This document shows positions 539-48,882 of a stretch of 64,000 bases of DNA, one piece after another. Position 1 is the stretch's first letter, and each line of letters begins with the position of its first letter. The notes beneath the pieces are model-generated. The model was not told where the DNA came from and ran no database searches. It saw only the letters and a program-made list of their open reading frames with translations. The translations under genes and the position numbers were made by a program. Origin of the DNA: Escherichia coli O157 typing phage 15; sequence record KP869113. One strand, written 5' to 3'.

Positions 539-555
539 AGTATCACCTTTTTATC

Positions 556-631: not shown

Positions 632-636
632 AAAAT

Positions 637-790: not shown

Positions 791-797
791 ATGAAAG

Positions 798-27665: not shown

Positions 27666-27741
27666 TGGAGAATCCGAAGGGACTCGAACCCTTATAAACC
27701 TGTTTTGCAGACAGGCACATAGCCGTTTCTGTCACGGATTC
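27666..27741 (-). tRNA. tRNA-Cys (anticodon GCA)
   Basis: Acceptor GAATCCG/CGGATTC, T-arm GGGTTCGAGTCCC, anticodon stem CCTGT/ACAGG loop CTGCAAA, CCA encoded. Confidence 0.7.
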
Positions 27742-27745
27742 AAAT

Positions 27746-27838
27746 TGGAGGAAGATACCAGACTTGAACTGGTACACCGATTTCTCAGCTACTGGCAGTT
27801 TAGCAAACTGCTCCCTTACCTTTTAGGGTTAATCTTCC
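27746..27838 (-). tRNA. tRNA-Ser (anticodon GCU), long variable arm
   Basis: 93 nt; acceptor GGAAGAT/ATCTTCC, anticodon stem GCAGT/ACTGC loop TTGCTAA, T-arm CCAGTTCAAGTCTGG. Confidence 0.7.
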
Positions 27839-27840
27839 AT

Positions 27841-28575
27841 TTATTTCTGTAATGCGTTCTTCATTTCTGGTGTTGCAATAGTGTCAATTACACCAGTTTT
27901 ACAAGCATCATCAAACCAGTCTGGTAAGATACCTGCTAAGAACCCATTGATATTCGTTTTAAGGTACTCTGCAATAAGAGCAGCTTCTTCTTCAATCATC
28001 TGCACAACTTCATCTGCATAAGCTGTAATTTTTGAAATACCTTCATTAATCTTACTAACAGCTTGCTCAGCTAAATCAGAAATAGTATCAAGACCTTTGT
28101 CAATAGCATCTTGTAAGTCACTTAACACACCATTAACACTATCTAGTGCACTGTTAATCGTATCAATAGCTTTTTGACCATACTCTGTAGCAACACCCAT
28201 AATACCACTAAATGGTGTACAGCCAACTTGTTCACCTGCTGCACCCATAACATTAGAGTAACCTTTTGCTACCTGCATACGTGATGAAAACTCATCAATG
28301 GACTTTTGACCGTAATCTGTTAGTGTTTTGGTAGTTGATGTAGTGCTTGTCAGACTCGTGGTAAAGCTGTTAAGCAGAACTGTTGTAAGTCCAGCAGCAA
28401 CAATCTTATCCTTTACTGTAGGGTCTGATACAGAACTAATAGAGCTTACAAGTGATGTAGAGGCAGCTACGGTTCCACCGAGAACTGCTGCACCAGTAAT
28501 AAGGGGGTTAGAAAACCCTTTACCGGTTTTTAAGAGATTGAAAATCTCCTTACCTTGTTCTGTCATCTCTTTCAT
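27841..28575 (-). CDS. Hypothetical protein embedded in the tRNA array (about 244 aa)
   Basis: Track ORF 27841..28638 overlaps tRNA-Phe at its 5' end, so start moved to an internal ATG (28575 or 28566); Ser/Thr-rich, no recognised motif. Confidence 0.4.
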   Translation of the reverse strand: MKEMTEQGKEIFNLLKTGKGFSNPLITGAAVLGGTVAASTSLVSSISSVSDPTVKDKIVAAGLTTVLLNSFTTSLTSTTSTTKTLTDYGQKSIDEFSSRMQVAKGYSNVMGAAGEQVGCTPFSGIMGVATEYGQKAIDTINSALDSVNGVLSDLQDAIDKGLDTISDLAEQAVSKINEGISKITAYADEVVQMIEEEAALIAEYLKTNINGFLAGILPDWFDDACKTGVIDTIATPEMKNALQK

Positions 28576-28591
28576 TAAGCACCTTTGAAAT

Positions 28592-28667
28592 TGGTAGTCC
28601 AGTGGGATTTGAACCCTCTTCTCATGTTTTTCAGACACGCGCTTTAACCATATAAGCTACTTGGACT
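28592..28667 (-). tRNA. tRNA-Phe (anticodon GAA)
   Basis: T-arm GGGTTCAAATCCC, anticodon stem CGTGT/ACATG loop CTGAAAA. Confidence 0.6.
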
Positions 28668-28673
28668 ATAAAT

Positions 28674-28749
28674 TGGGGTGACCTACGGGATTTGAACCCG
28701 TATAGACCATGTTCACAGCATGGGTCATTACCATTTATGATAAGGCCAC
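28674..28749 (-). tRNA. tRNA-His (anticodon GUG)
   Basis: Acceptor GTGGCCT/AGGTCAC, T-arm ACGGGTTCAAATCCCGT, anticodon stem CCATG/CATGG loop CTGTGAA, CCA encoded. Confidence 0.65.
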
Positions 28750-28780
28750 ATTTAAGGACTCTCGTAAGAATCCTTAGAAG

Positions 28781-28856
28781 TGGCAGCGGCATAAGGATTT
28801 GAACCTTAATAGGACAGCTTCAGAGACTGCTGCATTGCCAGTTATGCTATACCGCT
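28781..28856 (-). tRNA. tRNA-Gln (anticodon CUG)
   Basis: Acceptor AGCGGTA/TGCCGCT, D-stem GCAT/ATGC, anticodon loop CTCTGAA, T-arm TAAGGTTCAAATCCTTA, CCA. Confidence 0.65.
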
Positions 28857-28861
28857 AAATT

Positions 28862-28940
28862 TGGTACTCCATATCGGATTCGAACCGATACATAACACAG
28901 ATTTTAAGTCTGGCCTCTCTGCCAATTGGAGTAATGGAGC
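28862..28940 (-). tRNA. tRNA-Leu (anticodon UAA), tentative; short variable arm
   Basis: Acceptor GCTCCAT/ATGGAGT, T-arm ATCGGTTCGAATCCGAT, anticodon loop CTTAAAA; D-arm CCAATTGGCAGAG as in the other Leu-type tRNAs. Confidence 0.5.
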
Positions 28941-28942
28941 AT

Positions 28943-29018
28943 TGGCGGGGGATGTTGGAATTGAACCAACTTCTTCGATTTCAAAGACCGAGGTTTTAAC
29001 CTTGTAAACTAATCCCCT
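28943..29018 (-). tRNA. tRNA-Gln (anticodon UUG)
   Basis: T-arm GTTGGTTCAATTCCAAC, anticodon stem TCGGT/ATCGA loop CTTTGAA, CCA encoded; possible 1-72 mismatch. Confidence 0.6.
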
Positions 29019-29026
29019 TTAAATCT

Positions 29027-29362
29027 TTACTTTCTTAGTGGATGAATAAAGAATGCCAACATAACTCTTTCCCTTGAAAATGCTCTTTCTTCTGGGACAA
29101 CACTTTTAAGTTTCCACCCAACATAAATTCTCCAGTAAAATTGTTTACCAAAGATTTTGATTGACGGCACAAAAGCGAATAATCCCCAAGCATTACTGTT
29201 CCACATTAGGAGATAACCAGTCTGATTATCTTCAGGGTTAGAACTTACGTTGATATTACCTTTCCACTTAGTAACATCTTTTACATCTCTTCCTAATACA
29301 TGGTAAGAGAAGTTATAAGCTTTGTTTCTCCAGAGCCATCCAACTCTCTGCATGTAGACACC
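29027..29362 (-). CDS. Membrane protein, 5' part lost in N gap (same gene as window 1..299)
   Basis: ORF 29027..29353 is the C-terminal part; 29286-29362 is identical to window 1-77. Confidence 0.45.
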   Translation of the reverse strand, partial: GVYMQRVGWLWRNKAYNFSYHVLGRDVKDVTKWKGNINVSSNPEDNQTGYLLMWNSNAWGLFAFVPSIKIFGKQFYWRIYVGWKLKSVVPEERAFSRERVMLAFFIHPLRK

Positions 29363-30082
29363 NNNNNNNNNNNNNNNNNNNNNNNNNNNNNNNNNNNNNN
29401 NNNNNNNNNNNNNNNNNNNNNNNNNNNNNNNNNNNNNNNNNNNNNNNNNNNNNNNNNNNNNNNNNNNNNNNNNNNNNNNNNNNNNNNNNNNNNNNNNNNN
29501 NNNNNNNNNNNNNNNNNNNNNNNNNNNNNNNNNNNNNNNNNNNNNNNNNNNNNNNNNNNNNNNNNNNNNNNNNNNNNNNNNNNNNNNNNNNNNNNNNNNN
29601 NNNNNNNNNNNNNNNNNNNNNNNNNNNNNNNNNNNNNNNNNNNNNNNNNNNNNNNNNNNNNNNNNNNNNNNNNNNNNNNNNNNNNNNNNNNNNNNNNNNN
29701 NNNNNNNNNNNNNNNNNNNNNNNNNNNNNNNNNNNNNNNNNNNNNNNNNNNNNNNNNNNNNNNNNNNNNNNNNNNNNNNNNNNNNNNNNNNNNNNNNNNN
29801 NNNNNNNNNNNNNNNNNNNNNNNNNNNNNNNNNNNNNNNNNNNNNNNNNNNNNNNNNNNNNNNNNNNNNNNNNNNNNNNNNNNNNNNNNNNNNNNNNNNN
29901 NNNNNNNNNNNNNNNNNNNNNNNNNNNNNNNNNNNNNNNNNNNNNNNNNNNNNNNNNNNNNNNNNNNNNNNNNNNNNNNNNNNNNNNNNNNNNNNNNNNN
30001 NNNNNNNNNNNNNNNNNNNNNNNNNNNNNNNNNNNNNNNNNNNNNNNNNNNNNNNNNNNNNNNNNNNNNNNNNNNNNNNNNN
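29363..30082. other. Assembly gap (720 N); true content is probably represented by window 77-721
   Basis: N run; flanks 29286-29362 and 30083-30160 match window 1-77 and 722-797. Confidence 0.9.
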
Positions 30083-30151
30083 CTCACTAAAGGACTTGAA
30101 CCTTTTTCTTCATCTTGTAAGGGTGATGTTTTACCATATAAACTAAGCGAG
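30083..30151 (-). tRNA. tRNA-Val (UAC), 3'-truncated duplicate of 716..790
   Basis: Identical to window 722-790; 3' end lies in the gap. Confidence 0.5.
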
Positions 30152-30248
30152 TATGAAAGAGGTCTGAAGTTGTGCCGCTAACTCAACTTCGTGGAATTTG
30201 TTACGGTCTTCAGTTGACTCAAAGCGGTCTTTCACTTGACCTCTGAAT

Positions 30249-30324
30249 TGGTGCTCCCACAAGGACTCGAACCCTGATAAGTTGCTTACAAGGCAACCGT
30301 AATAACCAATTATACGATAGGAGC
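30249..30324 (-). tRNA. tRNA-Thr (anticodon UGU)
   Basis: Acceptor GCTCCTA/TGGGAGC, T-arm CAGGGTTCGAGTCCTTG, anticodon stem GTTGC/GCAAC loop CTTGTAA, CCA. Confidence 0.7.
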
Positions 30325-30331
30325 ATTAATT

Positions 30332-30406
30332 TGGAGCATCCAGAGGGAATCGAACCCTCAACCTCAGTTTGGAAGACTGTAATTTTCCCGTTTAAACTAT
30401 GGATGC
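30332..30406 (-). tRNA. tRNA-Gly (anticodon UCC)
   Basis: 75 nt; acceptor GCATCCA/TGGATGC, T-arm GAGGGTTCGATTCCCTC, anticodon loop CTTCCAA. Confidence 0.65.
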
Positions 30407-30412
30407 ACTAAT

Positions 30413-30488
30413 TGGTGGAGTCACTGAGAATTGAACTCAGTTCCCAAGTTTGCAAAACTCGAATTTTAACCATATAAACTATGACCCC
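30413..30488 (-). tRNA. tRNA-Ala (anticodon UGC)
   Basis: Acceptor GGGGTCA/TGACTCC with G3-U70 wobble (Ala identity element), anticodon stem CGAGT/ACTTG loop TTTGCAA, T-arm CTGAGTTCAATTCTCAG, CCA. Confidence 0.7.
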
Positions 30489-30494
30489 ATTGTT

Positions 30495-30570
30495 TGGTAC
30501 AGGTGGAGGGAATTGAACCCATCGTCTTACTGATTAAGAGTCAGCCGCATAACCATTTTGCTACACCTGC
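30495..30570 (-). tRNA. tRNA-Lys (anticodon CUU); atypical T-stem
   Basis: Acceptor GCAGGTG/CACCTGT, anticodon stem GCTGA/TCAGT loop CTCTTAA; T-arm ATGGGTTCAATTCCCTC pairs only 3 bp canonically. Confidence 0.5.
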
Positions 30571-30577
30571 ATTAATT

Positions 30578-30654
30578 TGGTACACCTAGAGAGATTCGAA
30601 CTCACACTGAGCAGATTCTAAGTCTGCTGCCTCTACCAGTTGGGCTATAGGTGC
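30578..30654 (-). tRNA. tRNA-Leu (anticodon UAG), tentative; short variable arm
   Basis: 77 nt; acceptor GCACCTA/TAGGTGT, anticodon stem GCAGA/TCTGC loop CTTAGAA, T-loop TTCGAAT, CCA; D-arm CCCAACTGGTAGAGG. Confidence 0.5.
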
Positions 30655-30912
30655 ATTAAATCTTTTTAGAGAACTTCTAAGAACCTGAGCAACAAGGTTC
30701 CACAACAAGCGACTAATAACCTTAGAAGCCCTCTAAAAAGACCTAAATAGGTCTTTGCATAGTCTTGTTTAATCCGGTGACTAGAACCTTTGGAGAGCTT
30801 GATATTATCTCTTCTCCGTGACACCTACTAGGTGTTTTATCAGTGTGTACAACAATACACGCGGTATACCAAAGCAACATCCGAATGAAGCTTGGCTTTA
30901 AATCTTATTAGG
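30655..30912 (-). ncRNA. Structured spacer in tRNA array (candidate stable small RNA)
   Basis: 258 nt with no tRNA and no ORF of 60 aa or more; four local hairpins (GAACC..GGTTC, GACCT-AAAT-AGGTC, CACCT-ACT-AGGTG, GTGTA..TACAC). Confidence 0.3.
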
Positions 30913-31000
30913 CGGTAAGTAAAGGAGTCGAACCCTCACCGTATCTCTACAGTGGCAACTGTTTTCAAGACAGTTTGGCTACCATTAGCCGCTACCTACC
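30913..31000 (-). tRNA. tRNA-Ser (anticodon UGA), long variable arm; CCA not encoded
   Basis: 88 nt; acceptor GGTAGGT/ACTTACC, anticodon stem ACTGT/ACAGT loop CTTGAAA, T-loop TTCGACT. Confidence 0.6.
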
Positions 31001-31013
31001 CCTAATAAGACTG

Positions 31014-31418
31014 CTAAATACTTAACAGTCCTGCATGAACTTTCCTATGACAGTTTGAGCAAAGCACAACACACTTACGAACTTCACGCTTAATAGTTCC
31101 CCTAGAGTAAGTCTTAAGATTGCTTGGAGCAAAATCTTTCTCTTTAGGGTCTAAGTGATGAAAATCTAAAGCTACTGGCTCGGATTCACCACATATTCTG
31201 CATTTGCAAAACTTTTTATATCTACTAAGGAACTCTCTGTTTCTCTTTTTGTCATATTTTGCTCTAACTTTCCTTTTTGCTTTATAAGTAGGGTCTTCTT
31301 TGTATCTCTTTGCTGAGTACTTAGCTTTACAATCTTTGCAAGCAGACTGATAGCCATTCCCTCTTTTATGAAAGCAACTTAAAGGCTTCTCTTGAGAACA
31401 TTTTCTACAAAGTTTCAT
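31014..31418 (-). CDS. HNH homing endonuclease inserted in the tRNA array
   Basis: N-terminal CxxC...CxxC zinc ribbon; C-terminal HNH motif DFHHLDP...LCSNCHRKVH; lies between tRNA-Ser and tRNA-Trp. Confidence 0.75.
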   Translation of the reverse strand: MKLCRKCSQEKPLSCFHKRGNGYQSACKDCKAKYSAKRYKEDPTYKAKRKVRAKYDKKRNREFLSRYKKFCKCRICGESEPVALDFHHLDPKEKDFAPSNLKTYSRGTIKREVRKCVVLCSNCHRKVHAGLLSI

Positions 31419-31432
31419 ACAAGCACCTTTTC

Positions 31433-31503
31433 TGGCAGGGGTGTAGAGATTCGAACTCTAATCAAGAATTTTGGAGACTCTATTGCTGCCATAGCTCACC
31501 CCT
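31433..31503 (-). tRNA. tRNA-Trp (anticodon CCA), compact (71 nt)
   Basis: Acceptor AGGGGTG/CACCCCT, T-arm TAGAGTTCGAATCTCTA, anticodon stem AGAGT/ATTCT loop CTCCAAA, CCA encoded; short D-arm. Confidence 0.55.
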
Positions 31504-31651
31504 ATTAAAACTATAATTCGAAGCTTACCGTATTATCTCAACACTGTAAAGCCCCTTCTCAGATTATTTACATGTTCTGGAAAACATGAGATACAGACCA
31601 CCTCCCTACAGGAAGACCCGCTTAGGTCGTCTAAGTAATCTGCTAACTAAT
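31504..31651 (-). ncRNA. Structured spacer without canonical tRNA (candidate small RNA or degenerate tRNA)
   Basis: 148 nt; hairpin CTTAG-GTCGT-CTAAG; contains ATTCGAAG but no pairable T-stem or acceptor. Confidence 0.25.
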
Positions 31652-31728
31652 TGGCACACCCTACAGGATTCGAACCTGTAACTAACGATTTAGAAGACCG
31701 TTGCTCTATCCAATTGAACTAAGGGTGC
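31652..31728 (-). tRNA. tRNA-Arg (anticodon UCU)
   Basis: Acceptor GCACCCT/AGGGTGT, D-stem GTTC/GAGC, anticodon stem ACGGT/ATCGT loop CTTCTAA, T-arm ACAGGTTCGAATCCTGT, CCA. Confidence 0.7.
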
Positions 31729-32003
31729 ATTAACATTTTAAAGGGTACTCATTGCATTTAAGCCAAGCCCCATAAGGGATACCCTTTAGAATGTTGCCCA
31801 CCTTATTAATCATACCGTGGGCTAGTACGCCAAATTCTTTGATGAGGGATTGGAAGACCTCACTGGTGTTTAGCCTATCAAGCTACTGCCAGAAAAACAT
31901 TGTCGTTTGCATTTATTTTAAATTTGCAAAATAGACGCTACGCAACGAAAACTAAGGTTACTATAAAGTAGTCACATCTCAATGTCAACAACTTTATTGA
32001 AAT
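31729..32003 (-). ncRNA. Structured 275-nt spacer in tRNA array (candidate small RNA and/or internal promoter)
   Basis: No tRNA, no long ORF; hairpins AAGGGTA..TACCCTT and TTTGCA..TGCAAA. Confidence 0.25.
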
Positions 32004-32079
32004 TGGTACTGGTAGGTGGAATCGAACCACCGATGTTCCCTTATCAGGGGAGTGTTATAACCTTCTTAACTATACCAGC
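32004..32079 (-). tRNA. tRNA-Ile (anticodon GAU)
   Basis: Acceptor GCTGGTA/TACCAGT, T-arm GGTGGTTCGATTCCACC, anticodon loop CTGATAA, CCA. Confidence 0.65.
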
Positions 32080-32080
32080 T

Positions 32081-32157
32081 TGGAGGTTCAGATGGGAATC
32101 GAACCCACATTCATAGGGCTTATGAGACCCTTGCATTACCTTATCTGCGACTGAACC
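32081..32157 (-). tRNA. tRNA with anticodon CAU (Met, or Ile2 if lysidinylated)
   Basis: Acceptor GGTTCAG/CTGAACC, T-arm GTGGGTTCGATTCCCAT, anticodon stem AGGGT/GCCCT loop CTCATAA, CCA. Confidence 0.6.
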
Positions 32158-32235
32158 AGAATAAGTACCCTAGTTAGAGAAACTGTTGAGTGGGTGTTTC
32201 CAGCCGCGCAGGTGTTTCTTAGTTAAGGGTGAATT

Positions 32236-32311
32236 TGGTAGAAGTGGAGGGATTCGAACCCATCGCCTGTCAGATTAAAAGTCTGCCGCATCACCATTCT
32301 GCTACACTTCC
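32236..32311 (-). tRNA. tRNA-Lys (anticodon UUU); atypical T-stem, paralog of 30495..30570
   Basis: Acceptor GGAAGTG/CACTTCT, anticodon loop CTTTTAA, T-arm ATGGGTTCGAATCCCTC with only 3 canonical pairs. Confidence 0.5.
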
Positions 32312-32317
32312 ATTAAA

Positions 32318-32457
32318 TTATCTTTGTAGATAAGCTACCCAGACTTGCTTAAGGTCTGTAGCGATGTGCCTTTTTGGGTTTAAATCTAGAATTTACCCTT
32401 TCACCCTTTGTGGTCGCATACTCACAGGTAAGCTTAATAACTTATCTACAAAGATAA
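32318..32457. repeat. 17-bp perfect inverted repeat (TTATCTTTGTAGATAAG / CTTATCTACAAAGATAA) enclosing a 106-nt core
   Basis: Arms at 32318-32334 and 32441-32457; core has no tRNA and no ORF. Confidence 0.6.
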
Positions 32458-32511
32458 TTACCAGACCGTTGTTTATCATCTTAAGTGCTACCATTACACC
32501 AACTCGACATC

Positions 32512-32536
32512 TGCCGAGTGAAGGAATCGAACCTTC
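32512..32536 (-). pseudogene. tRNA-like 3' fragment (T-arm plus acceptor 3' strand) with no identifiable 5' half
   Basis: Canonical T-arm GAAGGTTCGATTCCTTC followed by ACTCGGC, but no complementary acceptor strand, D-arm or anticodon arm upstream. Confidence 0.3.
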
Positions 32537-32740
32537 GCCTTTTCTTTACCGGAGAAATAGATTGTTTAAGTTTTGCTGTAAACGGTCTTCTGTAAATTTG
32601 TTGAGCCAGACCAAGTTTTAAATTTTTCAAAATTAAATTGGCTTGAAATTTTAAATAACTTGCTGTATTTGGTCTTCTGCTCCTTTAAAGAATACTCGTA
32701 AGAACCCTTTAAGGGAGGGGCTAAATAGCCCTCTCAAAAT

Positions 32741-32818
32741 TGGCGGTTACGAAGGGATTTGAACCCTCATCATCTCCCGTGACAGGGGAGTATTTTAACC
32801 AAATTAAACTACATAACC
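32741..32818 (-). tRNA. tRNA-Asp (anticodon GUC)
   Basis: Acceptor GGTTATG/CGTAACC, anticodon stem CTCCC/GGGAG loop CTGTCAC, T-arm GAGGGTTCAAATCCCTT, CCA. Confidence 0.7.
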
Positions 32819-32823
32819 TTTAT

Positions 32824-32911
32824 TGGTGTGCCGTGTAGGAGTCGAACCTACCGAGTCTCAATGACAAGGGATTTACAGTCCCCACCGCTACCATCTACGG
32901 GATAACGACAC
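32824..32911 (-). tRNA. tRNA-Tyr (anticodon GUA), long variable arm
   Basis: 88 nt; acceptor GTGTCGT/ACGGCAC, anticodon stem GGGGA/TCCCT loop CTGTAAA, T-arm GTAGGTTCGACTCCTAC, CCA. Confidence 0.7.
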
Positions 32912-32980
32912 ATTTAATTTCTATTCAGGCTAAGGACTTGTACCTTACAAATCGGTGAGCAATCGCTTCTCTCCTAAATT

Positions 32981-33057
32981 TGGCGGTTAGTCAGGGATTC
33001 GAACCCTGTGCCATTCGCTTAACAGGCGACCGCACATACCTTATGTGCTTCCTAACC
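32981..33057 (-). tRNA. tRNA-Asn (anticodon GUU)
   Basis: D-stem GCAC/GTGC, anticodon loop CTGTTAA, T-arm CAGGGTTCGAATCCCTG, CCA. Confidence 0.65.
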
Positions 33058-33141
33058 ATGTTTAGTATTACCAGACCGTATATTTCAATTTTTTCCGCTA
33101 AAAATTTAATAAATATTGCTGTAAACGGTCTTCTGTAAATT
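33058..33141 (-). repeat. Inter-tRNA spacer hairpin element (ACCAGACCGT ... ACGGTCTTCTG family)
   Basis: Stem arms AGACCGT/ACGGTCT around an AT-rich loop; minus strand also reads TTTACAGAAGACC (-35-like). Confidence 0.5.
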
Positions 33142-33218
33142 TGGAGGCGGGTGCAGGAGTCGAACCTGCCGATACCATGCTAATGAGACATGTGAGACGC
33201 CCTTTCTCTATACCCGCA
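33142..33218 (-). tRNA. tRNA with anticodon CAU (Met / initiator / Ile2 candidate), non-canonical features
   Basis: T-arm GCAGGTTCGACTCCTGC, anticodon stem CATGT/GCATG loop CTCATTA, CCA encoded; position 1-72 apparently unpaired. Confidence 0.5.
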
Positions 33219-33308
33219 ATTCTTAATGACCAGACCAAATATCTTCTTTGTCCGATTAACTTTCAGATGAGTAGATTAAGTTTGCTGTAATTGGTCTTCT
33301 GTCAAAAC
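33219..33308 (-). repeat. Inter-tRNA spacer hairpin element, second copy with compensatory changes
   Basis: Arms AGACCAA/TTGGTCT replace AGACCGT/ACGGTCT of the first copy, preserving pairing; minus strand reads TTGACAGAAGACC. Confidence 0.5.
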
Positions 33309-33386
33309 TGGCGTTCCAGAAGGGATTTGAACCCTCAAATATCCACTTTGAAAGAGTGGTGACTTTACCATTTTGTCTACTGGAAC
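33309..33386 (-). tRNA. tRNA-Glu (anticodon UUC)
   Basis: Acceptor GTTCCAG/CTGGAAC, anticodon stem CCACT/AGTGG loop CTTTCAA, T-arm GAGGGTTCAAATCCCTT, CCA. Confidence 0.7.
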
Positions 33387-33393
33387 ATTAATT

Positions 33394-33473
33394 TGGTCTC
33401 CGTTGAAGGATTTGAACCCTCGACCCCTTGCTCCCAAAGCAAGTGCTGCTAAACCAGACTGAGCTAAACGGAG
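33394..33473 (-). tRNA. tRNA-Pro (anticodon UGG)
   Basis: Acceptor CTCCGTT/AACGGAG, anticodon stem CTTGC/GCAAG loop TTTGGGA, T-arm GAGGGTTCAAATCCTTC, CCA. Confidence 0.7.
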
Positions 33474-33638: not shown

Positions 33639-35054
33639 TTACCAGATATAACGGTCAATCATTACTGCTTTGAGCATTACACTGATTGGGTCAAACTTCT
33701 CACCACCAAGCAGAGCTTTTAAAGTGGCTGGAGAGAACCCTGATACCATTGCTACACCGTTATCCTTAACAGATACTTCGCAAGTACCATTACGGTTTGC
33801 TAAGTACCAGAATACCAGTTGTGGCATCTCATATCCAGCTTTTTTGTACTTACTCTGAATTGCTTCAAAGTTTGTACGACCGTTAGCTCCATCAACCTGA
33901 TTAAACTCCATATCGGAGAAGATGATAAGCTTACTTGGCATATCTTTCTGAGTCAAGTTGTTTCTTTTACCTGTTTCAAGAATGCGGTCAAAAGCTGCTT
34001 GTAAGTTAGTTGAGCCATATTCAACGTGTCGCATCACCTGACGATGACGGTTTCGTAAATCACCACTCAGTTCGATGAAGTGAGGGTTTGTTGAATAAAC
34101 CATCAACTCATTCTTAAAGCAACCTGTATTGCGTTCTGCTACATACAAGGCAAGTGATACACCAATATCCAGAGCAGTAATGGAGCCAAAATTCACCCAA
34201 GACATTGAACTTGATACATCAGACATACACAAGATGTTTTCACCTTCTGCCATCCAGTTTGGTAGTGCTTTCCACTGCTCATTAGCAACATCTGCATTAC
34301 CATACTTGACAGATTTAATCACATCGTATGGGTAAACAGCACCAGCGTTAATCTTAGTCTCACCTTTTGATAAGGACTCGATGTAAGCTTTGTAACGCTC
34401 TCCATCTTTACGGTTAAACAGTTTTTGGTAACGTGCAGCAGCAAGTGAAGGAATCTTACTGTAGTCAATCTTACCAAACTCATTAGCAGAGATTTTTTGC
34501 TCAACTGTATCAGATAGTGCAGACAACAGTGTGCGGTACTCTTTCTCACTCAAGTTGGCAAACTTGCAGAAACGTTTTACAAACTGCTTATGACGTGGTT
34601 TGACTCGTGGTAACCACTTAGCCGCCAAACCTGCTGTTGCAGGGTCTAGTAATGCTGCTTCTAAATGTTTGAAGGCATCTGTCTCGAAACGAGTACCTAC
34701 GAAGATTTTGAAGTCATCAAAACGACCAAGTTCTGCAATCTTATCCATAATGCGAAGAACCTGCGTAGACTCTAAAACTTTGTCTTCAATCGCTTGAAGT
34801 AAAACAGCTCTGAAGGCTTTACGCTCACCCATACCTTCTCGTACATCTCGCATATGCAGTAAAATACGAACTGCAACATCAACATCCTCACGCAAAGCTT
34901 TGTAGAACAGGTCTGGTAAGATTTCTACATTGCTACGGCTTGAACCAGCAGCTTTGTAAAAGTCTACAAGAGCAGACATTGATGAAGTATGGTTTACAGC
35001 ACCATTTTCAGTTCGACCTGCATGAAGGTGCGCATGTTTAAATAACTCGCTCAT
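33639..35054 (-). CDS. vWA-domain protein with MIDAS motif and about 270-aa helical N-terminal domain (possibly Ro60/TROVE-like)
   Basis: C-terminal half has DxSxS MIDAS motif (MSDVSSSM) followed by hydrophobic strand typical of vWA fold; N-terminal half is helix-rich; immediately upstream of the tRNA array on the same strand. Confidence 0.55.
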   Translation of the reverse strand: MSELFKHAHLHAGRTENGAVNHTSSMSALVDFYKAAGSSRSNVEILPDLFYKALREDVDVAVRILLHMRDVREGMGERKAFRAVLLQAIEDKVLESTQVLRIMDKIAELGRFDDFKIFVGTRFETDAFKHLEAALLDPATAGLAAKWLPRVKPRHKQFVKRFCKFANLSEKEYRTLLSALSDTVEQKISANEFGKIDYSKIPSLAAARYQKLFNRKDGERYKAYIESLSKGETKINAGAVYPYDVIKSVKYGNADVANEQWKALPNWMAEGENILCMSDVSSSMSWVNFGSITALDIGVSLALYVAERNTGCFKNELMVYSTNPHFIELSGDLRNRHRQVMRHVEYGSTNLQAAFDRILETGKRNNLTQKDMPSKLIIFSDMEFNQVDGANGRTNFEAIQSKYKKAGYEMPQLVFWYLANRNGTCEVSVKDNGVAMVSGFSPATLKALLGGEKFDPISVMLKAVMIDRYIW

Positions 35055-43699: not shown

Positions 43700-43965
43700 T
43701 TATCGGTTGTTCCAACCTCTGGGTCACCATCATATGTGAATAAAATATCTATCCTTCTTAACAACCTTCTTAATCTTACTCTCTATATATAGTTATATAG
43801 TACTATATAGTGTCTTAGTAACTATCTAGTGGTCTTAATAGCCCCTCTGTATAACCCTTCTAAATAGCCCTCTAAACACTCTTCTAACAAGCCTTCTTAA
43901 CAACCTATACAATCACCTTAACCATCTCTCTATACGCTCTTAGAAGCCTCTATACACCTCACCCC
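43700..43965. repeat. Pyrimidine-rich CTTAACAA-type repeat region; 43881-43957 identical to 898-974
   Basis: Same word family as 898-2733; 77-bp exact match. Confidence 0.6.
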
Positions 43966-44164
43966 AATAATGGTAGTGAGATTCCTCGTTTATGGCTTCT
44001 TTTACGGCATCTTTCCAGAAGTCATCAGTAGGGTTATAATCTGGTATCACCTGCTGAATCAGCATTTTGATAAGGTCAAAGGTATTATCTGTTCCACCGA
44101 TATCGAATTTTGCATCAAGTTGGTGGCAGCCATAAGCATTAACAGTTACGCGGATAGTTGACAT
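43940..44164 (-). CDS. Small early protein (74 aa)
   Basis: ORF immediately downstream of a promoter/hairpin/RBS cassette. Confidence 0.45.
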   Translation of the reverse strand: MSTIRVTVNAYGCHQLDAKFDIGGTDNTFDLIKMLIQQVIPDYNPTDDFWKDAVKEAINEESHYHYWGEVYRGF

Positions 44165-44230
44165 AATTTAGAATCTCCAGTTTAGGACTTTATTTAGTGG
44201 GGAAGGTCATTCCCTCCCCGTTGTTTAGTA
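44165..44230 (-). promoter_or_regulatory. Early-gene leader cassette, family 1
   Basis: Coding-strand consensus CAACGGGGAGGGAATGACCTTCCCCACTAA(G/A)TAAAGTCCTTAAACT(A/G)GAGATTC then ATG. Confidence 0.55.
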
Positions 44231-44232
44231 AT

Positions 44233-44496
44233 TTACTGCATATTGGCGTAGGTTGCAAGCCTTTTTTCGTTGTATTTTGTCAGAATTTCACAAGATAGAA
44301 CATCGTACATTGTAACCGCTTTGCTTTTGTCGAGGTCAAAAAAGCCAAATGCTTTACCATCTTTGAATCCGACAACTTCGTAAGATTCTTTAATGATTTC
44401 ACCATTGAACAAATCACTTTCGATACGGTGAAACAACGCTACGTCTTCTTTGTCAGTTGCAATCTGCAATAGTGTGGTTAATTCTACGTGTTCCAT
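44233..44496 (-). CDS. Small early protein (about 87 aa)
   Basis: Track ORF 44233..44601 trimmed to the ATG at 44496 that directly follows the cassette RBS. Confidence 0.45.
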   Translation of the reverse strand: MEHVELTTLLQIATDKEDVALFHRIESDLFNGEIIKESYEVVGFKDGKAFGFFDLDKSKAVTMYDVLSCEILTKYNEKRLATYANMQ

Positions 44497-44570
44497 TTTT
44501 GAATCTCCTAGTTTAAGGACTTTACTTAGTGGGAAGGTTAATCCCTCCCCGTTGATTGACAATTTACAGA
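44497..44570 (-). promoter_or_regulatory. Early-gene leader cassette, family 1
   Basis: Same consensus; upstream minus strand reads TTGACG-17 nt-TAAATT. Confidence 0.55.
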
Positions 44571-45094
44571 CTTTTGATTGTCTCGTCAATATCTTTTTCA
44601 ATATCTTTTAAAGTTTTTTCTAAGTTCTTGATATTGAAGGATAAGCCTTCACCGAGAGTCTTAGAATAACTGCTAGGACGTAAATCATAAAGGCCAATTT
44701 GTTCTACATTGGAGAGGTTGACCATTTCACCGCTTACATCATAAGCTATTGATACGGTGTTTTCAGGGGCTTTATAGAACTTGTTAAGATTCTTGATAGA
44801 ACGTTCATAAGCCATTTTATAACCATTTAAAAGGTCTTTAACGTGGTTGCGAACGTTTTTACACTCATCTAAGTAAATACCTAAGAATAGCGGTAACAGT
44901 TCTGCTACAGCTTGCATAAAGTGAGATACTACAACAGTAGAAACATTACGACGATGTATATAATAAGCCCCGTTTTCTGATTTAGTGATAGTTGCAAAGT
45001 GTACACCGTTGCAACGAAATTCGAAGGTATCTTTAACGGGTTTAGTCATAACGTTAGATGAGCGAATGTAGTTGATAGCTTGAAACTTGTTCAT
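44564..45094 (-). CDS. Hypothetical early protein (176 aa)
   Basis: ORF following cassette. Confidence 0.45.
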   Translation of the reverse strand: MNKFQAINYIRSSNVMTKPVKDTFEFRCNGVHFATITKSENGAYYIHRRNVSTVVVSHFMQAVAELLPLFLGIYLDECKNVRNHVKDLLNGYKMAYERSIKNLNKFYKAPENTVSIAYDVSGEMVNLSNVEQIGLYDLRPSSYSKTLGEGLSFNIKNLEKTLKDIEKDIDETIKSL

Positions 45095-45165
45095 TTTGAA
45101 TCTCCTAGTTTAAGGACTTTACTTAGTGGGGAAGGTCATTCCCTCCCCGTTGATTAGTACTATAC
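45095..45165 (-). promoter_or_regulatory. Early-gene leader cassette, family 1
   Basis: Same consensus; minus strand reads TTGCAA..TATAGT upstream of hairpin. Confidence 0.55.
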
Positions 45166-45315
45166 TTGTTTTGATTTGCCTTTGCAAGCAATTTTTTAAG
45201 TTTATCTATAAAGAATCTATTAAGTGAATCCCTTTTAGATAACCCCCTCGAACAAAGTTACCAATGTCAATGGGTATTGTCAACACTTTTTTAAAAGTTT
45301 TTTGTAAGTTATTGA

Positions 45316-45657
45316 TTAACTTATGAAGATTTTTTCAGGCTTTACATAGCTGATACGCTGACTTTTTAGCAGGTCATCCCAGATTAAAGCGGCAATATGT
45401 GCATAACCGGATTCACGTAAAAGCTTCATTGTTTTACTTCTCGTTTCAAAACGGCTTGCGTAGTATTCACTGTTCAAGGTCGTTTTATTCCCTTCGTTAT
45501 CTGTATGGATGATTTGCATCACTTGAAAGGGGCTTACACCCTCGCCTTTGTTCCACTGTTCAAAGTATTTTAGGCACTGCATAGGTGACATCTTATCACT
45601 TACTTGAGTTGACCAAGATGAGCCAGCTTTATCGGTAATTACGGTTACATAAGCCAT
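45316..45657 (-). CDS. Hypothetical early protein (113 aa)
   Basis: ORF following family-2 cassette. Confidence 0.45.
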   Translation of the reverse strand: MAYVTVITDKAGSSWSTQVSDKMSPMQCLKYFEQWNKGEGVSPFQVMQIIHTDNEGNKTTLNSEYYASRFETRSKTMKLLRESGYAHIAALIWDDLLKSQRISYVKPEKIFIS

Positions 45658-45742
45658 TTTAGAATCTCCAGTTTAGGATTGAGTGGTAAAGCTCTTTATC
45701 TGGGGCTTACTATACAGACTAATAAGCCCCATGTAAAGTACT
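45658..45742 (-). promoter_or_regulatory. Early-gene leader cassette, family 2
   Basis: Coding-strand palindrome GGGGCTTA-N13-TAAGCCCC, then AGATAAAGAGCTTTACCACTCAATCCTAAACTGGAGATTC and ATG. Confidence 0.55.
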
Positions 45743-45991
45743 TTAAGCGTCTTTATATTCTATCTCTGTGCACTCACCTTTTACTAGCTCAAAGGTCCAA
45801 ATAATTCGTTTATACTCAATCACTACTACAGTAACAAGGTCAGTCCTCTTCTCATTGGTTTTAAAGTCTATTGTGTGGGTATACTCATAACTAGTCTTAT
45901 CCTTAATTTCCCCGTAGCGTCTACACTCTTTATAGACTTCATCCATTAAGCCATTGCTAACCATGTTTTTTAGTTGAGTTTTAGTATACAT
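45743..45991 (-). CDS. Small early protein (82 aa)
   Basis: ORF following cassette. Confidence 0.45.
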   Translation of the reverse strand: MYTKTQLKNMVSNGLMDEVYKECRRYGEIKDKTSYEYTHTIDFKTNEKRTDLVTVVVIEYKRIIWTFELVKGECTEIEYKDA

Positions 45992-46084
45992 TTTTTGGAA
46001 TCTCCTAGTTTAAGGACTTTACTTAGTGGGGAAGGTCATTCCCTCCCCGTTGATTGATAATTTACAGACTTTTATCAGGCTTGT
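45992..46084 (-). promoter_or_regulatory. Early-gene leader cassette, family 1
   Basis: Consensus plus upstream TAGACA..TAAATT promoter-like hexamers. Confidence 0.55.
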
Positions 46085-46318
46085 CTAGTCTTTTTCAATG
46101 ATAATTTCATATTGACCATCGACACTGTCGAAATAGATTCCTTCGTCATCTTCTGTCTTAAAGTAACATTGTATATCATCACTGGCGGGGTAGTCTTGTC
46201 TTGCTATCTGGCAAACTTGAATAGCATTTTCTTTACTTCCTGTAAACTCTTCAAGCCCTTTAAAGTCACATGAATGGCCGTTACAAATGGAAAGGATGAG
46301 ATAAATGGTTGTAAGCAT
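46085..46318 (-). CDS. Small secreted protein (77 aa)
   Basis: N-terminal signal-like hydrophobic segment MLTTIYLILSICNG; several Cys. Confidence 0.4.
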   Translation of the reverse strand: MLTTIYLILSICNGHSCDFKGLEEFTGSKENAIQVCQIARQDYPASDDIQCYFKTEDDEGIYFDSVDGQYEIIIEKD

Positions 46319-46324
46319 GATTTA

Positions 46325-46370
46325 AGCCCTCTAAAAGCCCCTGTAAGGGGTTAATCAGTGTTTATAAGGT
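46325..46370 (-). terminator. Hairpin terminator after gene 46385..46927
   Basis: Minus-strand CCCCTTACAGGGG followed by CTTTTAG. Confidence 0.4.
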
Positions 46371-46384
46371 GAATGTATAGGTTT

Positions 46385-46927
46385 TTAGAAAAAGACCTTT
46401 AAATCACTCTCTACAATGTTTTCTGTCAGTGTATCCATGATGTCACAAAAAACCTGAATACTGTCGGATTGTTGGATACTTTTAGCAAGTAGCTCCAATG
46501 TTTCATCAAGATAATTTAAATTTGGGTTATCCAGTGAAGGGAGACAAAAAGGTGAATACATAGCGTTGAACTCTGTTGTATAGACCTTTTTAATCCAATT
46601 TACATCAAAGTACTCTGTAAAGCTTGCTATATTTGACATGTTATCACAAGAATAATCATCATTTAGCTCATCCTCTGGAATGTCAAGTTCTAAGATAACA
46701 ATATTTTGAGTTTTCATCTGAAAAGCTGCCGTGATAGTGGCATTTCCTAGAGCTTGCTGGATACCTTCCGATGCTATCTCTTCCTCATCATCACCATAGA
46801 GTTTATTTTCTGGGTACACGTAAAAATTGCCGTCCATATCCGAACAATTCCATACACCTGATGGTTTATCACCGTTATTAATCAGGTTGATAAAGTTTTC
46901 TTGAGTAGTACCGTGAAAGCATTTCAT
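46385..46927 (-). CDS. Hypothetical protein (180 aa) with N-terminal HGT motif (speculative ADP-ribosyltransferase or 2'-phosphotransferase-like)
   Basis: MKCFHGTT at N-terminus, aromatic-rich segment NFYVYPENKLYG, acidic central region; motif-level resemblance only. Confidence 0.4.
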   Translation of the reverse strand: MKCFHGTTQENFINLINNGDKPSGVWNCSDMDGNFYVYPENKLYGDDEEEIASEGIQQALGNATITAAFQMKTQNIVILELDIPEDELNDDYSCDNMSNIASFTEYFDVNWIKKVYTTEFNAMYSPFCLPSLDNPNLNYLDETLELLAKSIQQSDSIQVFCDIMDTLTENIVESDLKVFF

Positions 46928-47020
46928 TTTGAATCTCCTAGTTTAAGGATTTAGTGGTAAAGCTCTTTATCTGGGGCTTACTTTATCGAACTATAAGCCC
47001 CTTGTAAAGTACTTTATCAG
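46928..47020 (-). promoter_or_regulatory. Early-gene leader cassette, family 2
   Basis: GGGGCTTA..TAAGCCCC palindrome plus conserved RBS segment. Confidence 0.55.
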
Positions 47021-47218
47021 TTAATTTTTGACAACTTTTAAAACTGCAAGATAACCTAAGCAATAAGAATCACCGAAGAGAGTTCTACCCATGAAAGAAT
47101 CATCTTTGATATCCTTTGCAGTGACTGTTTTTTCTACGCCGTGGGAAAGAACTACATCACCAACTTTAATGTCTTTGATGTGCGTGGTTTCAATGGTTAA
47201 ACCGTTGATAATAGCCAT
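47021..47218 (-). CDS. Small early protein (65 aa)
   Basis: ORF following cassette. Confidence 0.4.
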   Translation of the reverse strand: MAIINGLTIETTHIKDIKVGDVVLSHGVEKTVTAKDIKDDSFMGRTLFGDSYCLGYLAVLKVVKN

Positions 47219-47319
47219 TTTGAATCTCCTAGTTTAAGGACTTTACTTAGTGGGGAAGGTCATTCCCTCCCCGTTGATGTGTAATTTAATCTATCTAAAA
47301 ATCAGTGTCAATAAAATTT
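47219..47319 (-). promoter_or_regulatory. Early-gene leader cassette, family 1
   Basis: Consensus hairpin plus RBS. Confidence 0.55.
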
Positions 47320-47724
47320 TTAGAGTTCTGCATAAATTGCGTCGCAGATGTCACGAAAGTCATGATTTGCCAAATTACGTTGTAACCAAGTGGCAAAGAA
47401 ATCAGCGATTGCAAAATTAGCATCATACTCAACAGATAGCCACACTTTCACGGCAAATCTAAACATTTTCAAGTCTAACTCTTTATTCATTACCTTAGAT
47501 TTGCCTAACATGTCGACCATTTCATATTGTGCACCGTCTAGCGTGATACCTGCTGCAACGTCAGCCAATGAGTTTTTTACGTTTTCAACGTCTAAGATAA
47601 CGCTTTGAATCTTTCCGATAATGTTGTGCAATGTTTCATCCGGTGCTGATGATGTAATAACATTGATTCGATTAACGGTTAAACGTGCTTTTAAGATTGA
47701 CAACTCACGATTATTAATAGCCAT
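47320..47724 (-). CDS. Hypothetical early protein (134 aa)
   Basis: ORF following cassette. Confidence 0.45.
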   Translation of the reverse strand: MAINNRELSILKARLTVNRINVITSSAPDETLHNIIGKIQSVILDVENVKNSLADVAAGITLDGAQYEMVDMLGKSKVMNKELDLKMFRFAVKVWLSVEYDANFAIADFFATWLQRNLANHDFRDICDAIYAEL

Positions 47725-47809
47725 TTTAGAATCTCCAATTTAGGATTGAGTGGTAAAGCTCTTTATCTGGGGCTTACTGTACAGACTAATAAGCCCCCTG
47801 TAAAGTACT
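47725..47809 (-). promoter_or_regulatory. Early-gene leader cassette, family 2
   Basis: Palindrome GGGGCTTA..TAAGCCCC; TTTACA-17 nt-TACAGT overlaps the palindrome. Confidence 0.55.
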
Positions 47810-48082
47810 TTATACTAAATGCAGTTTTTTACCTTTTACTATGATGTAACTTGATGTGCTATTGCTACATACATCCTGATAAATTCTGCGCAAACGTCCT
47901 TCATAGTATACTTTCCAGCTAGTTGGAATCTTTTTGCCGTATCCGGTAGCAGTTTTTTGGAGTCCTGCGACTTGCCAATCTAAGATATGTTGCTCAGCCT
48001 GTAAATCCTCAAAGTGCATCACACCGTCTACATAGTGACGTAGAGTGACATTTAAAGTGCGACCGTTGTTAGTAGTATACAT
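47810..48082 (-). CDS. Small early protein (90 aa)
   Basis: ORF following cassette. Confidence 0.45.
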   Translation of the reverse strand: MYTTNNGRTLNVTLRHYVDGVMHFEDLQAEQHILDWQVAGLQKTATGYGKKIPTSWKVYYEGRLRRIYQDVCSNSTSSYIIVKGKKLHLV

Positions 48083-48171
48083 TTTAGAATCTCCTAGTTT
48101 AAGGACTTTATTTAGTGGGGTGTTTATTGCCTCCCCGTTGATGTGTAATTTAATCTATCTAAAAATCAGTG
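48083..48171 (-). promoter_or_regulatory. Early-gene leader cassette, family 1 variant
   Basis: Variant hairpin GGGGAGGCAATAAACACCCC with conserved RBS segment. Confidence 0.5.
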
Positions 48172-48504
48172 TCAACAGTTTTGTTTTCGTTTGCTCAACT
48201 CTTGAACAATTACAGTATGATAGTCTTTTAAGTCACTAATATTTAAAGCATTTATCAGAGAATTATAATCATCGACTAATTGAAAATCATCTTTGAAAAT
48301 GTCGCTGATTTGATAAGTTCTCGCCCTGAATCTGAAGCTCATTTCTAACCGCTTTAATTGTTCATCGCTCAACCGCTCTAGAAAGCTCATTACAAGGCTA
48401 TTGCTAACCTGTTGTGTGATTGCCTTATTTGCTAGATTATAGGCTTTATATGCCTTATAGAGCGCGAAAATGGCAATGATTGCAGTGATACCAGTCATTA
48501 ACAT
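48172..48504 (-). CDS. Small membrane-anchored protein (110 aa)
   Basis: N-terminal hydrophobic helix MLMTGITAIIAIFALYKAY. Confidence 0.4.
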   Translation of the reverse strand: MLMTGITAIIAIFALYKAYKAYNLANKAITQQVSNSLVMSFLERLSDEQLKRLEMSFRFRARTYQISDIFKDDFQLVDDYNSLINALNISDLKDYHTVIVQELSKRKQNC

Positions 48505-48794: not shown

Positions 48795-48882
48795 TTTTGA
48801 ATCTCCAGTTTAGGATTGAGTGGTAAAGCTCTTTATCTGGGGCTTAAGATACCAACTTTTAAGCCCCTTGTAAAGTACTTTA
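48795..48882 (-). promoter_or_regulatory. Early-gene leader cassette, family 2
   Basis: Palindrome plus RBS segment. Confidence 0.55.

Follow-up and report, generated by a model that had tools for sequence, protein, structure and literature searches.

The 64,000-nt stretch of Escherichia coli O157 typing phage 15 analysed here (record KP869113; this whole stretch is hereafter called the window) carries on its minus strand a large array of transfer RNA (tRNA) genes. Very probably, this array is the conserved tRNA gene island of Felixounavirus, i.e. of Felix O1/wV8-type myophages of E. coli and Salmonella, which would act by supplementing the decoding capacity of the host. The array is already known and ordinary for Felix O1-type phages, which have been recognised since 2010 as carriers of about 22-27 tRNAs; by itself it adds nothing new. 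The practical outcomes are that the scaffold is a draft, that its first contig fits into a gap within the array, and that the gene count is 27 and not 28 or more. As a by-product, the analysis provides a testable set of candidate Y RNAs for a Ro60-like protein that counters the Ppl defence.

ARAGORN was run on the whole window and called 28 tRNA genes, none of them on the plus strand: 25 at 27666-33473, precisely the limits proposed in the initial annotation, and 3 at 556-790. The number of distinct genes is 27, as the 28th call, a tRNA-Val(UAC) at 30080-30153, is the same gene as the one at 716-790; this agrees with the approximately 27 minus-strand tRNAs that had previously been folded by hand, and all anticodons listed on that occasion were reproduced. 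Automated prediction supports these loci also in the Rfam tRNA covariance model RF00005, the gathering score of which (29 bits) is reached by 25 of the 27 genes. Support at 33-65 bits was obtained for 24 distinct genes, and tRNA-Trp was added at 33.2 bits by a more sensitive scan (E<=5), leaving tRNA-Tyr and one of two tRNAs with the anticodon CAU (CAU-A) as exceptions. tRNA-Tyr, missing among the RF00005 matches, is tagged Tyr or pseudo in the annotation of relatives. Among the RF00005 matches obtained at the gathering threshold, that of tRNA-Ser(UGA) scores lowest (33.2 bits). Other Rfam families gave only sub-threshold matches in the array and its spacers, namely tmRNA_permuted over tRNA-Ile (29.2 bits vs a gathering score of 47), Plastid-ycf2 antisense to tRNAs, and miRNA families; these were treated as chance or as echoes of tRNAs.

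A 3' CCA is encoded in 26 of the 27 genes, the exception being tRNA-Ser(UGA), which ends in GCC followed by t, so that the final A of CCA is not encoded. Spacers within blocks of tRNA genes are A/U-rich and 1-8 nt long. At the wobble position, 12 genes have U, 8 have G, 6 have C and a single one has A; each four-codon box is served by one U34 tRNA. Identity elements are found as well, such as G3:U70 in tRNA-Ala, and A1:U72 together with G73 in tRNA-Trp. A phage origin, as assumed in the initial annotation, is confirmed by 411 phage records matching the region, the best of which belong to Felixounavirus (94-98.5% identity). When rebuilt, the locus is colinear with that of wV8 at 98.7% identity and comprises 27 genes over approximately 5.7 kb. 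It is bounded by Ro-like/DUF5681 genes on one side and by DUF7217 and terL genes on the other, lies on the same strand as terL, and by synteny shares its genomic position with the arrays of Felix O1, wV8, typing phage 8 (TP8), Sf14 and Mordin. The 27 co-oriented genes are interrupted by one mobile HNH endonuclease gene, the presence of which had been noticed before and is borne out by a PHROG match (Table 1), and by three small open reading frames (ORFs).

Codon usage in the window, taken from 73 long ORFs with 16,312 codons in total, was compared with that of the annotated genes of one 49-kb region of E. coli K-12. The GC content at third codon positions is 0.32 in the phage vs 0.50-0.55 in E. 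coli. Codons that are Watson-Crick cognates of phage tRNAs display a mean log2 ratio of relative synonymous codon usage (phage/E. coli) of +0.45, vs -0.39 for all others (Mann-Whitney p=0.025). The strongest enrichment among cognate codons is seen for AGA, CUA, UUA, ACA, UCA, CCA and GGA; per 1000 codons, AGA is used 18.4 times in the phage vs 1.0-1.6 times in E. coli, CUA 8.8 vs 0.4-3.6, ACA 26.7 vs 3.0-8.2, and UCA 19.4 vs 1.4-8.6. Together with U34 in 12 tRNAs, by which A-ending codons are read, this upholds the earlier proposal of a preference for A/U-ending codons and a supplementation of host decoding. Watson-Crick pairing alone lets the set read 26 codons, making up 51% of phage usage; if E. 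coli wobble rules are applied, 51 of 61 codons are covered, accounting for 91% of phage usage. The codons left unread are GGU, GGC, C-ending codons of four-codon boxes, and CGG, as well as AUA unless one of the CAU tRNAs is tRNA-Ile2. The earlier statement that all 20 amino acids are decoded thus stands nominally, one array covering them all, and does not extend to all codons; for Met and His it is nominal only, given that one CAU tRNA is aberrant, that the KhF1 annotation lists the other as Ile(CAU), and that tRNA-His lacks an encoded G-1.

Codon supplementation is supported but not exclusive. In the proposed mechanism, polycistronic precursors would be transcribed from host-type promoters, trimmed by host RNase P and 3' exonucleases (CCA being already encoded in nearly all genes), and the products charged by host synthetases. 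One U34 tRNA per four-codon box would then enlarge the decoder pool for A/U-rich phage codons, extra tRNAs for AGA, UUA, CUA, CAA and AAG would widen decoding further, and phage translation, late proteins above all, would rely less on rare or depleted host tRNAs. Published work points in the same direction: tRNAs and codon bias have been described for Felix O1 (PMC3185647), and the late genes of Sf14 are the best adapted to the phage tRNA pool (PMC12482277). Eight of the REP phages that infect Syn61-delta3, thereby breaking its genetic firewall, are Felixounaviruses, and their growth on this strain is enabled by a homologue of tRNA-Ser(UGA), the only Felixounavirus tRNA with published functional evidence. 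On the other hand, several observations weigh against this account. The codons most used by the phage (GGU, GAU, AUU, GCU, GUU) are not Watson-Crick cognates of its tRNAs, and no tRNA of the set reads GGU, which makes up 4.4% of codons; phage codon usage fits supplementation modestly, the host reference being a single 49-kb region. A scan for promoters and terminators gave counts at chance level (17 promoter-like sites vs 16.1 expected) and no firm transcription map. In phage Bas63 the tRNA genes are mostly non-essential on four laboratory strains (PMC11482910). Finally, the set has non-canonical members, namely CAU-A, a tRNA-His without G-1, and short tRNA-Leu genes.

A second possibility, compatible with supplementation and tentatively entertained by us, is that the array mainly serves as insurance or counter-defence, replacing host tRNAs that are lost to chromosome degradation or to tRNA-targeting defences such as anticodon nucleases, VapC, PARIS and retron effectors. 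The near-complete set, nominally reaching 20 amino acids and most codons, goes beyond the needs of codon bias and also fits models discussed for Sf14 and T5, in which a collapsing or attacked host pool is replaced; the 'all-destructive infection' model is preferred in the Sf14 study (PMC12482277). There are tRNAs for codons that the phage does not over-use (CGU, AUC, GAC, UUC), and the phage genes are far from their host counterparts, to which the CAU tRNAs are 54-61% identical; how anticodon loops differ from those of the host has been tabulated for the near-identical Sf14 set. Furthermore, CAU-A is initiator-derived with an altered anticodon stem-loop, and enteric VapC cleaves initiator tRNA. 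However, nuclease escape was tested and rejected by the Sf14 authors for their set, and no tRNA-targeting system was linked to these phages in the results obtained. The dispensability of most Bas63 tRNAs in laboratory strains counts against an obligatory replacement, but not against a conditional one.

Table 1. Coordinates in the window of the tRNA genes, interrupting ORFs, neighbouring genes and candidate RNA modules (aa, amino acids).
Feature	Position	Strand	Evidence and remarks
Ro60-like protein gene heading the array, 471 aa, DUF2828 + DUF7788	33639-35054	-	Pfam; phrog_850 'RNA-binding protein'
tRNA-Pro(UGG)	33394-33473	-	ARAGORN, Rfam 54.1 bits; first gene in transcription direction
tRNA-Glu(UUC)	33309-33386	-	ARAGORN, Rfam 60.6 bits
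M3, candidate Y-RNA-like module, Glu/CAU-A spacer	33226-33305	-	motif and fold; model R1 33.8 bits
CAU-A, aberrant initiator-derived tRNA	33142-33218	-	ARAGORN only
M4, candidate Y-RNA-like module, CAU-A/Asn spacer	33062-33140	-	motif and fold; model R1 44.7 bits
tRNA-Asn(GUU)	32981-33057	-	ARAGORN, Rfam 48 bits
tRNA-Tyr(GUA), long variable arm	32824-32911	-	ARAGORN; best Rfam match is the tRNA-Sec model, 29.6 bits
tRNA-Asp(GUC)	32741-32818	-	ARAGORN, Rfam 65.2 bits
M1, candidate Y-RNA-like module	32602-32683	-	motif; fold z-score -2.7
M2, candidate YrlA-like module	32453-32596	-	UACAGCAA motif, fold, covariance
144-nt hairpin, 24-bp stem	32316-32459	-	just upstream of tRNA-Lys(UUU); compensatory pairs
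tRNA-Lys(UUU)	32236-32311	-	ARAGORN, Rfam 54.4 bits
CAU-B, canonical loop	32081-32157	-	ARAGORN, Rfam 55.6 bits
tRNA-Ile(GAU)	32004-32079	-	ARAGORN, Rfam 62.3 bits
tRNA-Arg(UCU), variable gene	31652-31728	-	ARAGORN, Rfam 62.8 bits
tRNA-Trp(CCA), 71 nt, shortened D arm	31433-31503	-	ARAGORN, Rfam 33.2 bits
HNH homing-endonuclease ORF, 134 aa	31014-31418	-	phrog_2255 E=1.5e-45
tRNA-Ser(UGA)	30911-31000	-	ARAGORN, Rfam 33.2 bits
Five-tRNA block	30249-30654	-	ARAGORN, Rfam 57-60 bits; spacers 6-7 nt
tRNA-Leu(UAG), in this block	30578-30654	-	
tRNA-Lys(CUU), in this block	30495-30570	-	
tRNA-Ala(UGC), in this block	30413-30488	-	
tRNA-Gly(UCC), in this block	30332-30406	-	
tRNA-Thr(UGU), in this block	30249-30324	-	
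720-N scaffold gap	29363-30082	.	true content is window 78-720
tRNA-Val(UAC)	716-790	-	ARAGORN, Rfam; belongs inside the gap
tRNA-Leu(CAA)	637-714	-	ARAGORN, Rfam; belongs inside the gap
tRNA-Arg(ACG)	556-631	-	ARAGORN, Rfam; belongs inside the gap
80-aa ORF inside the array	296-538	-	with the DUF7338 ORF, equals wV8 gp53 and neighbour
185-aa DUF7338 ORF inside the array	299 down to 1, then 29285-29027	-	PF24027 E=1e-61; phrog_14202
Five-tRNA block	28592-29018	-	ARAGORN, Rfam 45-57 bits
tRNA-Gln(UUG), in this block	28943-29018	-	
tRNA-Leu(UAA), in this block	28862-28940	-	
tRNA-Gln(CUG), in this block	28781-28856	-	
tRNA-His(GUG), in this block	28674-28749	-	
tRNA-Phe(GAA), in this block	28592-28667	-	
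DUF7217 ORF inside the array, 244 aa	27841-28575	-	PF23854 E=2e-88; phrog_2114
tRNA-Ser(GCU)	27746-27838	-	ARAGORN, Rfam; last genes, just upstream of terL
tRNA-Cys(GCA)	27666-27741	-	ARAGORN, Rfam; last genes, just upstream of terL

The array is headed by a gene for a protein of 471 aa, for which an AlphaFold (AF2) model was built from 50 homologues (pLDDT 88.5, pTM 0.87). All of the top 12 Foldseek matches in the PDB are Ro60 proteins, from Thermus phage phiLo, Xenopus and Deinococcus (E 1.5e-8 to 3e-6, TM score up to 0.66 over full length, 12-15% identity), the fold of which is a ring of HEAT-like repeats plus a vWA domain. As modelled, the product has the Ro60 fold. It is the fold search alone that shows this kinship: at the level of sequence no Ro60/TROVE link was obtained, Pfam giving DUF2828 and DUF7788 only, and phmmer found no match among PDB sequences. 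The ORF corresponds to Bas63 gp130, which was reported in a 2024 preprint to be Ro60-like and to counter the Ppl defence, with 'some tRNA genes' guessed to be its Y RNAs (PMC11482910); this preprint was the only link between Felixounavirus and Ro60/Y RNA found in the literature. DUF2828 Ro-like genes of unrelated phages usually adjoin phage tRNA genes, too. In Klebsiella phage KP13-26 the Ro-like gene lies within a large tRNA array, and in Listeria phage A511, Campylobacter phage F358, Vibrio phage TCU-VP04 and Mycobacterium phage Kingsolomon tRNA genes are located 0.3-3.5 kb upstream of it. SPFH/Band-7 genes adjoin the Ro-like gene in Aeromonas phage LAh_9, and lie approximately 1.3 kb upstream in Kingsolomon.

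Candidate RNA partners of this protein are found in the spacers of the array. The conserved 429-nt spacer between tRNA-Asp and tRNA-Lys folds with z=-5.0 relative to shuffled sequences. A 20-nt motif, CAGAAGACC-NNN-UACAGCAA, occurs four times in the window (0.24 expected), always on the minus strand and inside the array, and one module begins at each copy. These modules, M1-M4, fold alike, with an outer 4-bp stem that varies in sequence and keeps its pairing, an AGA bulge, an inner stem AGACCNN/NNGGUCU, and a single-stranded UACAGCAA; they lie 0.35-1.2 kb downstream of position 33639, on the strand of the Ro-like gene. M2 also carries a YrlA-like tRNA mimic: besides UACAGCAA, its basal stem encloses a V hairpin, a T arm with the sequence GAAGG-UUCGAUU-CCUUC, a closed hairpin of 7 bp that resembles an acceptor stem, and a D arm reading GUGU-AAUGGUA-GCAC. 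Across Felix-type phages, pEC-M719/Sf14 and Mordin, three versions of this 7-bp hairpin occur that differ in sequence but are paired throughout. The GGCGAAGG sequence that M2 has at its T stem is not retained by pEC-M719, Felix O1 or FADO. We also considered M2 as a 'dimeric tRNA', composed of the T arm of one tRNA and the D arm of the next; this was rejected, as the strands between the arms are complementary and covary, and there is neither a flanking acceptor strand nor a second T arm. In pEC-M719, Sf14 and Mordin, 4-5 compensatory changes preserve the stem pairing of the neighbouring 144-nt hairpin, the interior of which diverges.

A covariance model built from six Ounavirinae copies of the module finds full-length matches beside the Ro-like gene, within about 4 kb and on its strand, in three distant phages: Klebsiella phage KP13-26 (58 bits, E=9e-11), Bacillus phage FADO (60 bits, E=1e-11) and Mycobacterium phage Kingsolomon (57% GC; 40 bits, E=1e-6), all sharing an ACAGCAA motif. 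In an alignment of 18 matches, 93% of pair cells are paired vs 38-46% with slid partners, and 26 of 29 pairs display compensatory change, counts that are biased upward by the alignment having been fitted to the model. With a stem-CAGCAA-stem descriptor, 8 of 9 Ro-like loci (two of Ounavirinae and six of seven from distant phages) yield 2-8 modules on the strand of the Ro-like gene, vs 0.2-0.4 per locus in shuffles; the modules form tandem clusters beside the Ro-like gene, with few scattered copies. Neither model R1 nor the descriptor gave a module by the Ro-like gene of Vibrio phage TCU-VP04-AIR2, and in Erwinia phage Tian, which is devoid of a Ro-like gene, the descriptor gave noise only. Tandem modules were seen beside DUF2828 genes in Klebsiella, Aeromonas, Mycobacterium, Campylobacter, Listeria and Bacillus phages. 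No Rfam family matches the modules, and they are unannotated in the records inspected; a published description was not found, the overlap with the 22 phage YrlA RNAs of Chen et al. (2014) not having been checked.

Judged by motif, fold and covariation, M1-M4 are candidate Y RNAs of a variant class. With moderate confidence, we hypothesize that the island is a Ro60-like ribonucleoprotein (RNP) locus set among tRNA genes, in which M1-M4 represent an undescribed class of phage Y RNA partnering the DUF2828-type protein. Such a class would be kept beside genes of this type in phages of Enterobacteria, Klebsiella, Aeromonas, Campylobacter, Listeria, Bacillus and Mycobacterium, usually near tRNA genes. 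Surveillance of tRNA or other RNA, capture of host exoribonucleases, or counter-defence would be likely roles. If this holds true, the modules would define a widespread phage RNP tied to phage tRNA biology.

The guess quoted above for Bas63, made by the PhageMaP authors (PMC11482910), leads to another explanation, which appears unlikely to us, namely that some of the called tRNAs, with CAU-A and tRNA-His as candidates, are non-decoding mimics that partner the Ro60-like protein. CAU-A, flanked by modules M3 and M4, gave no Rfam match at E<=5; its homologue in Felix O1 has a Cove score of 28.9 (PMC3185647). In the ARAGORN fold, its acceptor and D stems are those of an initiator (U1.C72 mismatch, G2:C71, C3:G70, G4:C69, A11:U24). 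Of the three consecutive G:C pairs of initiators (29:41, 30:40 and 31:39), its anticodon stem CAUGU/GCAUG has only 30:40, it carries U37 instead of a purine and U73 instead of A73, and the connector between acceptor and D stems has 3 nt, one extra. The loop CUCAUUA or UUCAUUA is present in Sf14 and Erwinia phage Tian as well, and E. coli metY shares 73% identity with the positional homologue in Tian. In tRNA-His, C73 is present, but every Felixounavirus compared has t at position -1 (g in Tian), and the gene is tagged as a pseudogene by tRNAscan in the annotation of wV8, Felix O1 and Ro111lw; G-1 is a major identity element for HisRS in E. coli. Both genes are 100% conserved in the Felixounaviruses compared (eight in the case of CAU-A). 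Nevertheless, both have homologues in Tian, which possesses neither the Ro-like gene nor the modules, both retain U33 in an intact anticodon loop and a free acceptor end with CCA encoded, and as Y RNA candidates both are surpassed by the spacer modules.

Two further caveats concern CAU-B and tRNA-Leu. CAU-B is canonical, but may be an elongator tRNA-Met or tRNA-Ile2: its identity to E. coli metT (57%), ileX (58%) and metY is alike (54-58%) and does not separate Met from Ile2. It has U4:A69 and C5:G68; the TilS determinants in E. coli tRNA-Ile2 are C4:G69 and C5:G68. The three tRNA-Leu genes (28862-28940, 30578-30654 and 637-714) are 77-79 nt long including CCA and lack a long variable arm, E. 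coli tRNA-Leu(UAG), leuW, having 85 nt. They retain A73 and a 3-bp D stem of the Leu type.

As to the scaffold, the window contains five runs of N, four of 100 N (798-897, 1426-1525, 1908-2007, 2734-2833) and one of 720 N within the array. Window 1-77 is identical to 29286-29362, and 721-797 to 30083-30159, i.e. exactly 77 nt at either side of the 720-N run, and further exact 77-nt overlaps flank joins of 100 N (1349-1425/1526-1602 and 1831-1907/2008-2084). These repeats resemble the fixed overlaps that an assembler would leave at contig ends. Another such overlap links 898-974 and 43882-43958, and window 1-2833 is made up of small contigs of low GC content (30%), rich in CTTAACA-type repeats. 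The contig 1-797 aligns unbroken to wV8 (99.6%) where the 720-N run stands. Read from its sequence, the window is a draft scaffold, and this contig is the missing filler of the gap; colinearity with wV8 therefore places tRNA-Arg(ACG), tRNA-Leu(CAA) and tRNA-Val(UAC) inside one continuous array. A true second copy of these genes, as implied by the duplicated segment of the initial annotation and by the double appearance of tRNA-Val(UAC) beside exact repeats at 1-77 and 721-797, with more than 27 tRNA genes in consequence, is ruled out for practical purposes, since the repeats are exactly 77 nt long and sit at contig ends beside N runs, only 74 bases of tRNA-Val(UAC) are repeated before running into Ns, and wV8, TP8, TH10 and other relatives have each gene once, at the position of the gap.

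Outside the array, the region 44163-49745 holds families of 70-100-nt direct repeats, 5-6 copies each, in the intergenic stretches of a block of small minus-strand ORFs. Among them are a GGGGAAGGTCATTCCCTCCCC hairpin and the motif GAATCTCCTAGTTTAAGGACTTTA; the families probably represent reiterated regulatory signals of an early-gene region.

Run on the genomes of relatives, the same predictor gave 25 tRNA genes for Felix O1 (NC_005282), 26 each for wV8 (NC_012749), KhF1, Ro111lw and Erwinia phage Tian, 24 for pEC-M719, and 27 each for TH10 (MT446388) and GE_vB_7A (MG969404), the latter two with the same genes in the same order as the window. Lower counts have been published for Felixounavirus genomes (17-23), as some genes escape tRNAscan or are called pseudogenes by it. 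The clusters of Felixounavirus (Felix O1, wV8, TH10, GE_vB_7A, KhF1, Ro111lw, Bas63) are alike in position, strand, order and anticodons, at 94-99% identity, and differ from the window by the presence or absence of variable modules only. tRNA-Arg(UCU) is absent from wV8 and Felix O1 and present in Ro111lw, KhF1 and TH10. tRNA-Trp and the HNH gene are absent from KhF1 and Ro111lw, and among the genomes compared tRNA-Trp was found only beside the HNH gene. HNH genes are present or absent at no fewer than three (>=3) alternative sites among relatives, some of which carry an extra one between tRNA-Gly and tRNA-Thr. The HNH ORF of the window also matches several other HNH PHROGs and displays CxxC...HH...N...CxxCH in its translation; its Pfam HNH_2 match (16.9 bits) is below the 21-bit cut-off. 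Two spacers, of 69 nt (Asn to Tyr) and 78 nt (Lys to CAU-B), likewise vary by presence or absence. As a mosaic, the window resembles wV8 over most of the array, Ro111lw around tRNA-Arg(UCU) (99%), and KhF1 from Asn to Pro (99.8%).

Beyond Felixounavirus, the Mooglevirus phages Sf14 and Mordin have about 26 co-oriented tRNAs upstream of the terminase and share order, Ro-like gene and spacer modules with the window. The Kolesnikvirus Tian also has co-oriented tRNAs upstream of the terminase, but in a rearranged order; unlike the window, it carries three CAU tRNAs, a Leu(AAG), a normal tRNA-Trp and G-1 for His, and has neither the Ro-like gene nor the UACAGCAA modules. In clusters of T4-like and T5-like phages, tRNA genes are likewise mixed with small ORFs and homing endonucleases, and tRNA-Pro of the window is approximately 79% identical to T4 tRNA-Pro, and tRNA-Glu approximately 77% identical to tRNA-Glu of T5-like phages. 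However, these arrays belong to other phage families, with no synteny to the array of the window seen, and T4 carries 8 tRNAs only.

With regard to the candidate RNP, the window has a Ro60-fold protein in common with bacterial Rsr and its YrlA/YrlB RNAs (Chen et al., 2014; PMC4201824) and with the phiLo Ro60 and its Yrl1/Yrl2 RNAs (PMC12135203). In contrast to these systems, the protein here is of the DUF2828/DUF7788 type and not a Pfam TROVE match, and the modules are embedded in a tRNA array. The YrlA motif GNCGAA(N)G or CGAA, with which Ro60 has been proposed to make contact, is replaced by (U/C)ACAGCAA following the 5' stem strand, GNCGAA(N0-1)G being absent from the 5' strand of the modules. 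On the other hand, YrlA and M2 share the order of their elements (5' stem strand, V, T arm, closed acceptor-like stem, D arm, 3' stem strand), and Ro60-Y RNA loci, like that of the window, hold several small stem-bulge-stem RNAs in tandem, at a distance of <=4 kb and on the same strand.

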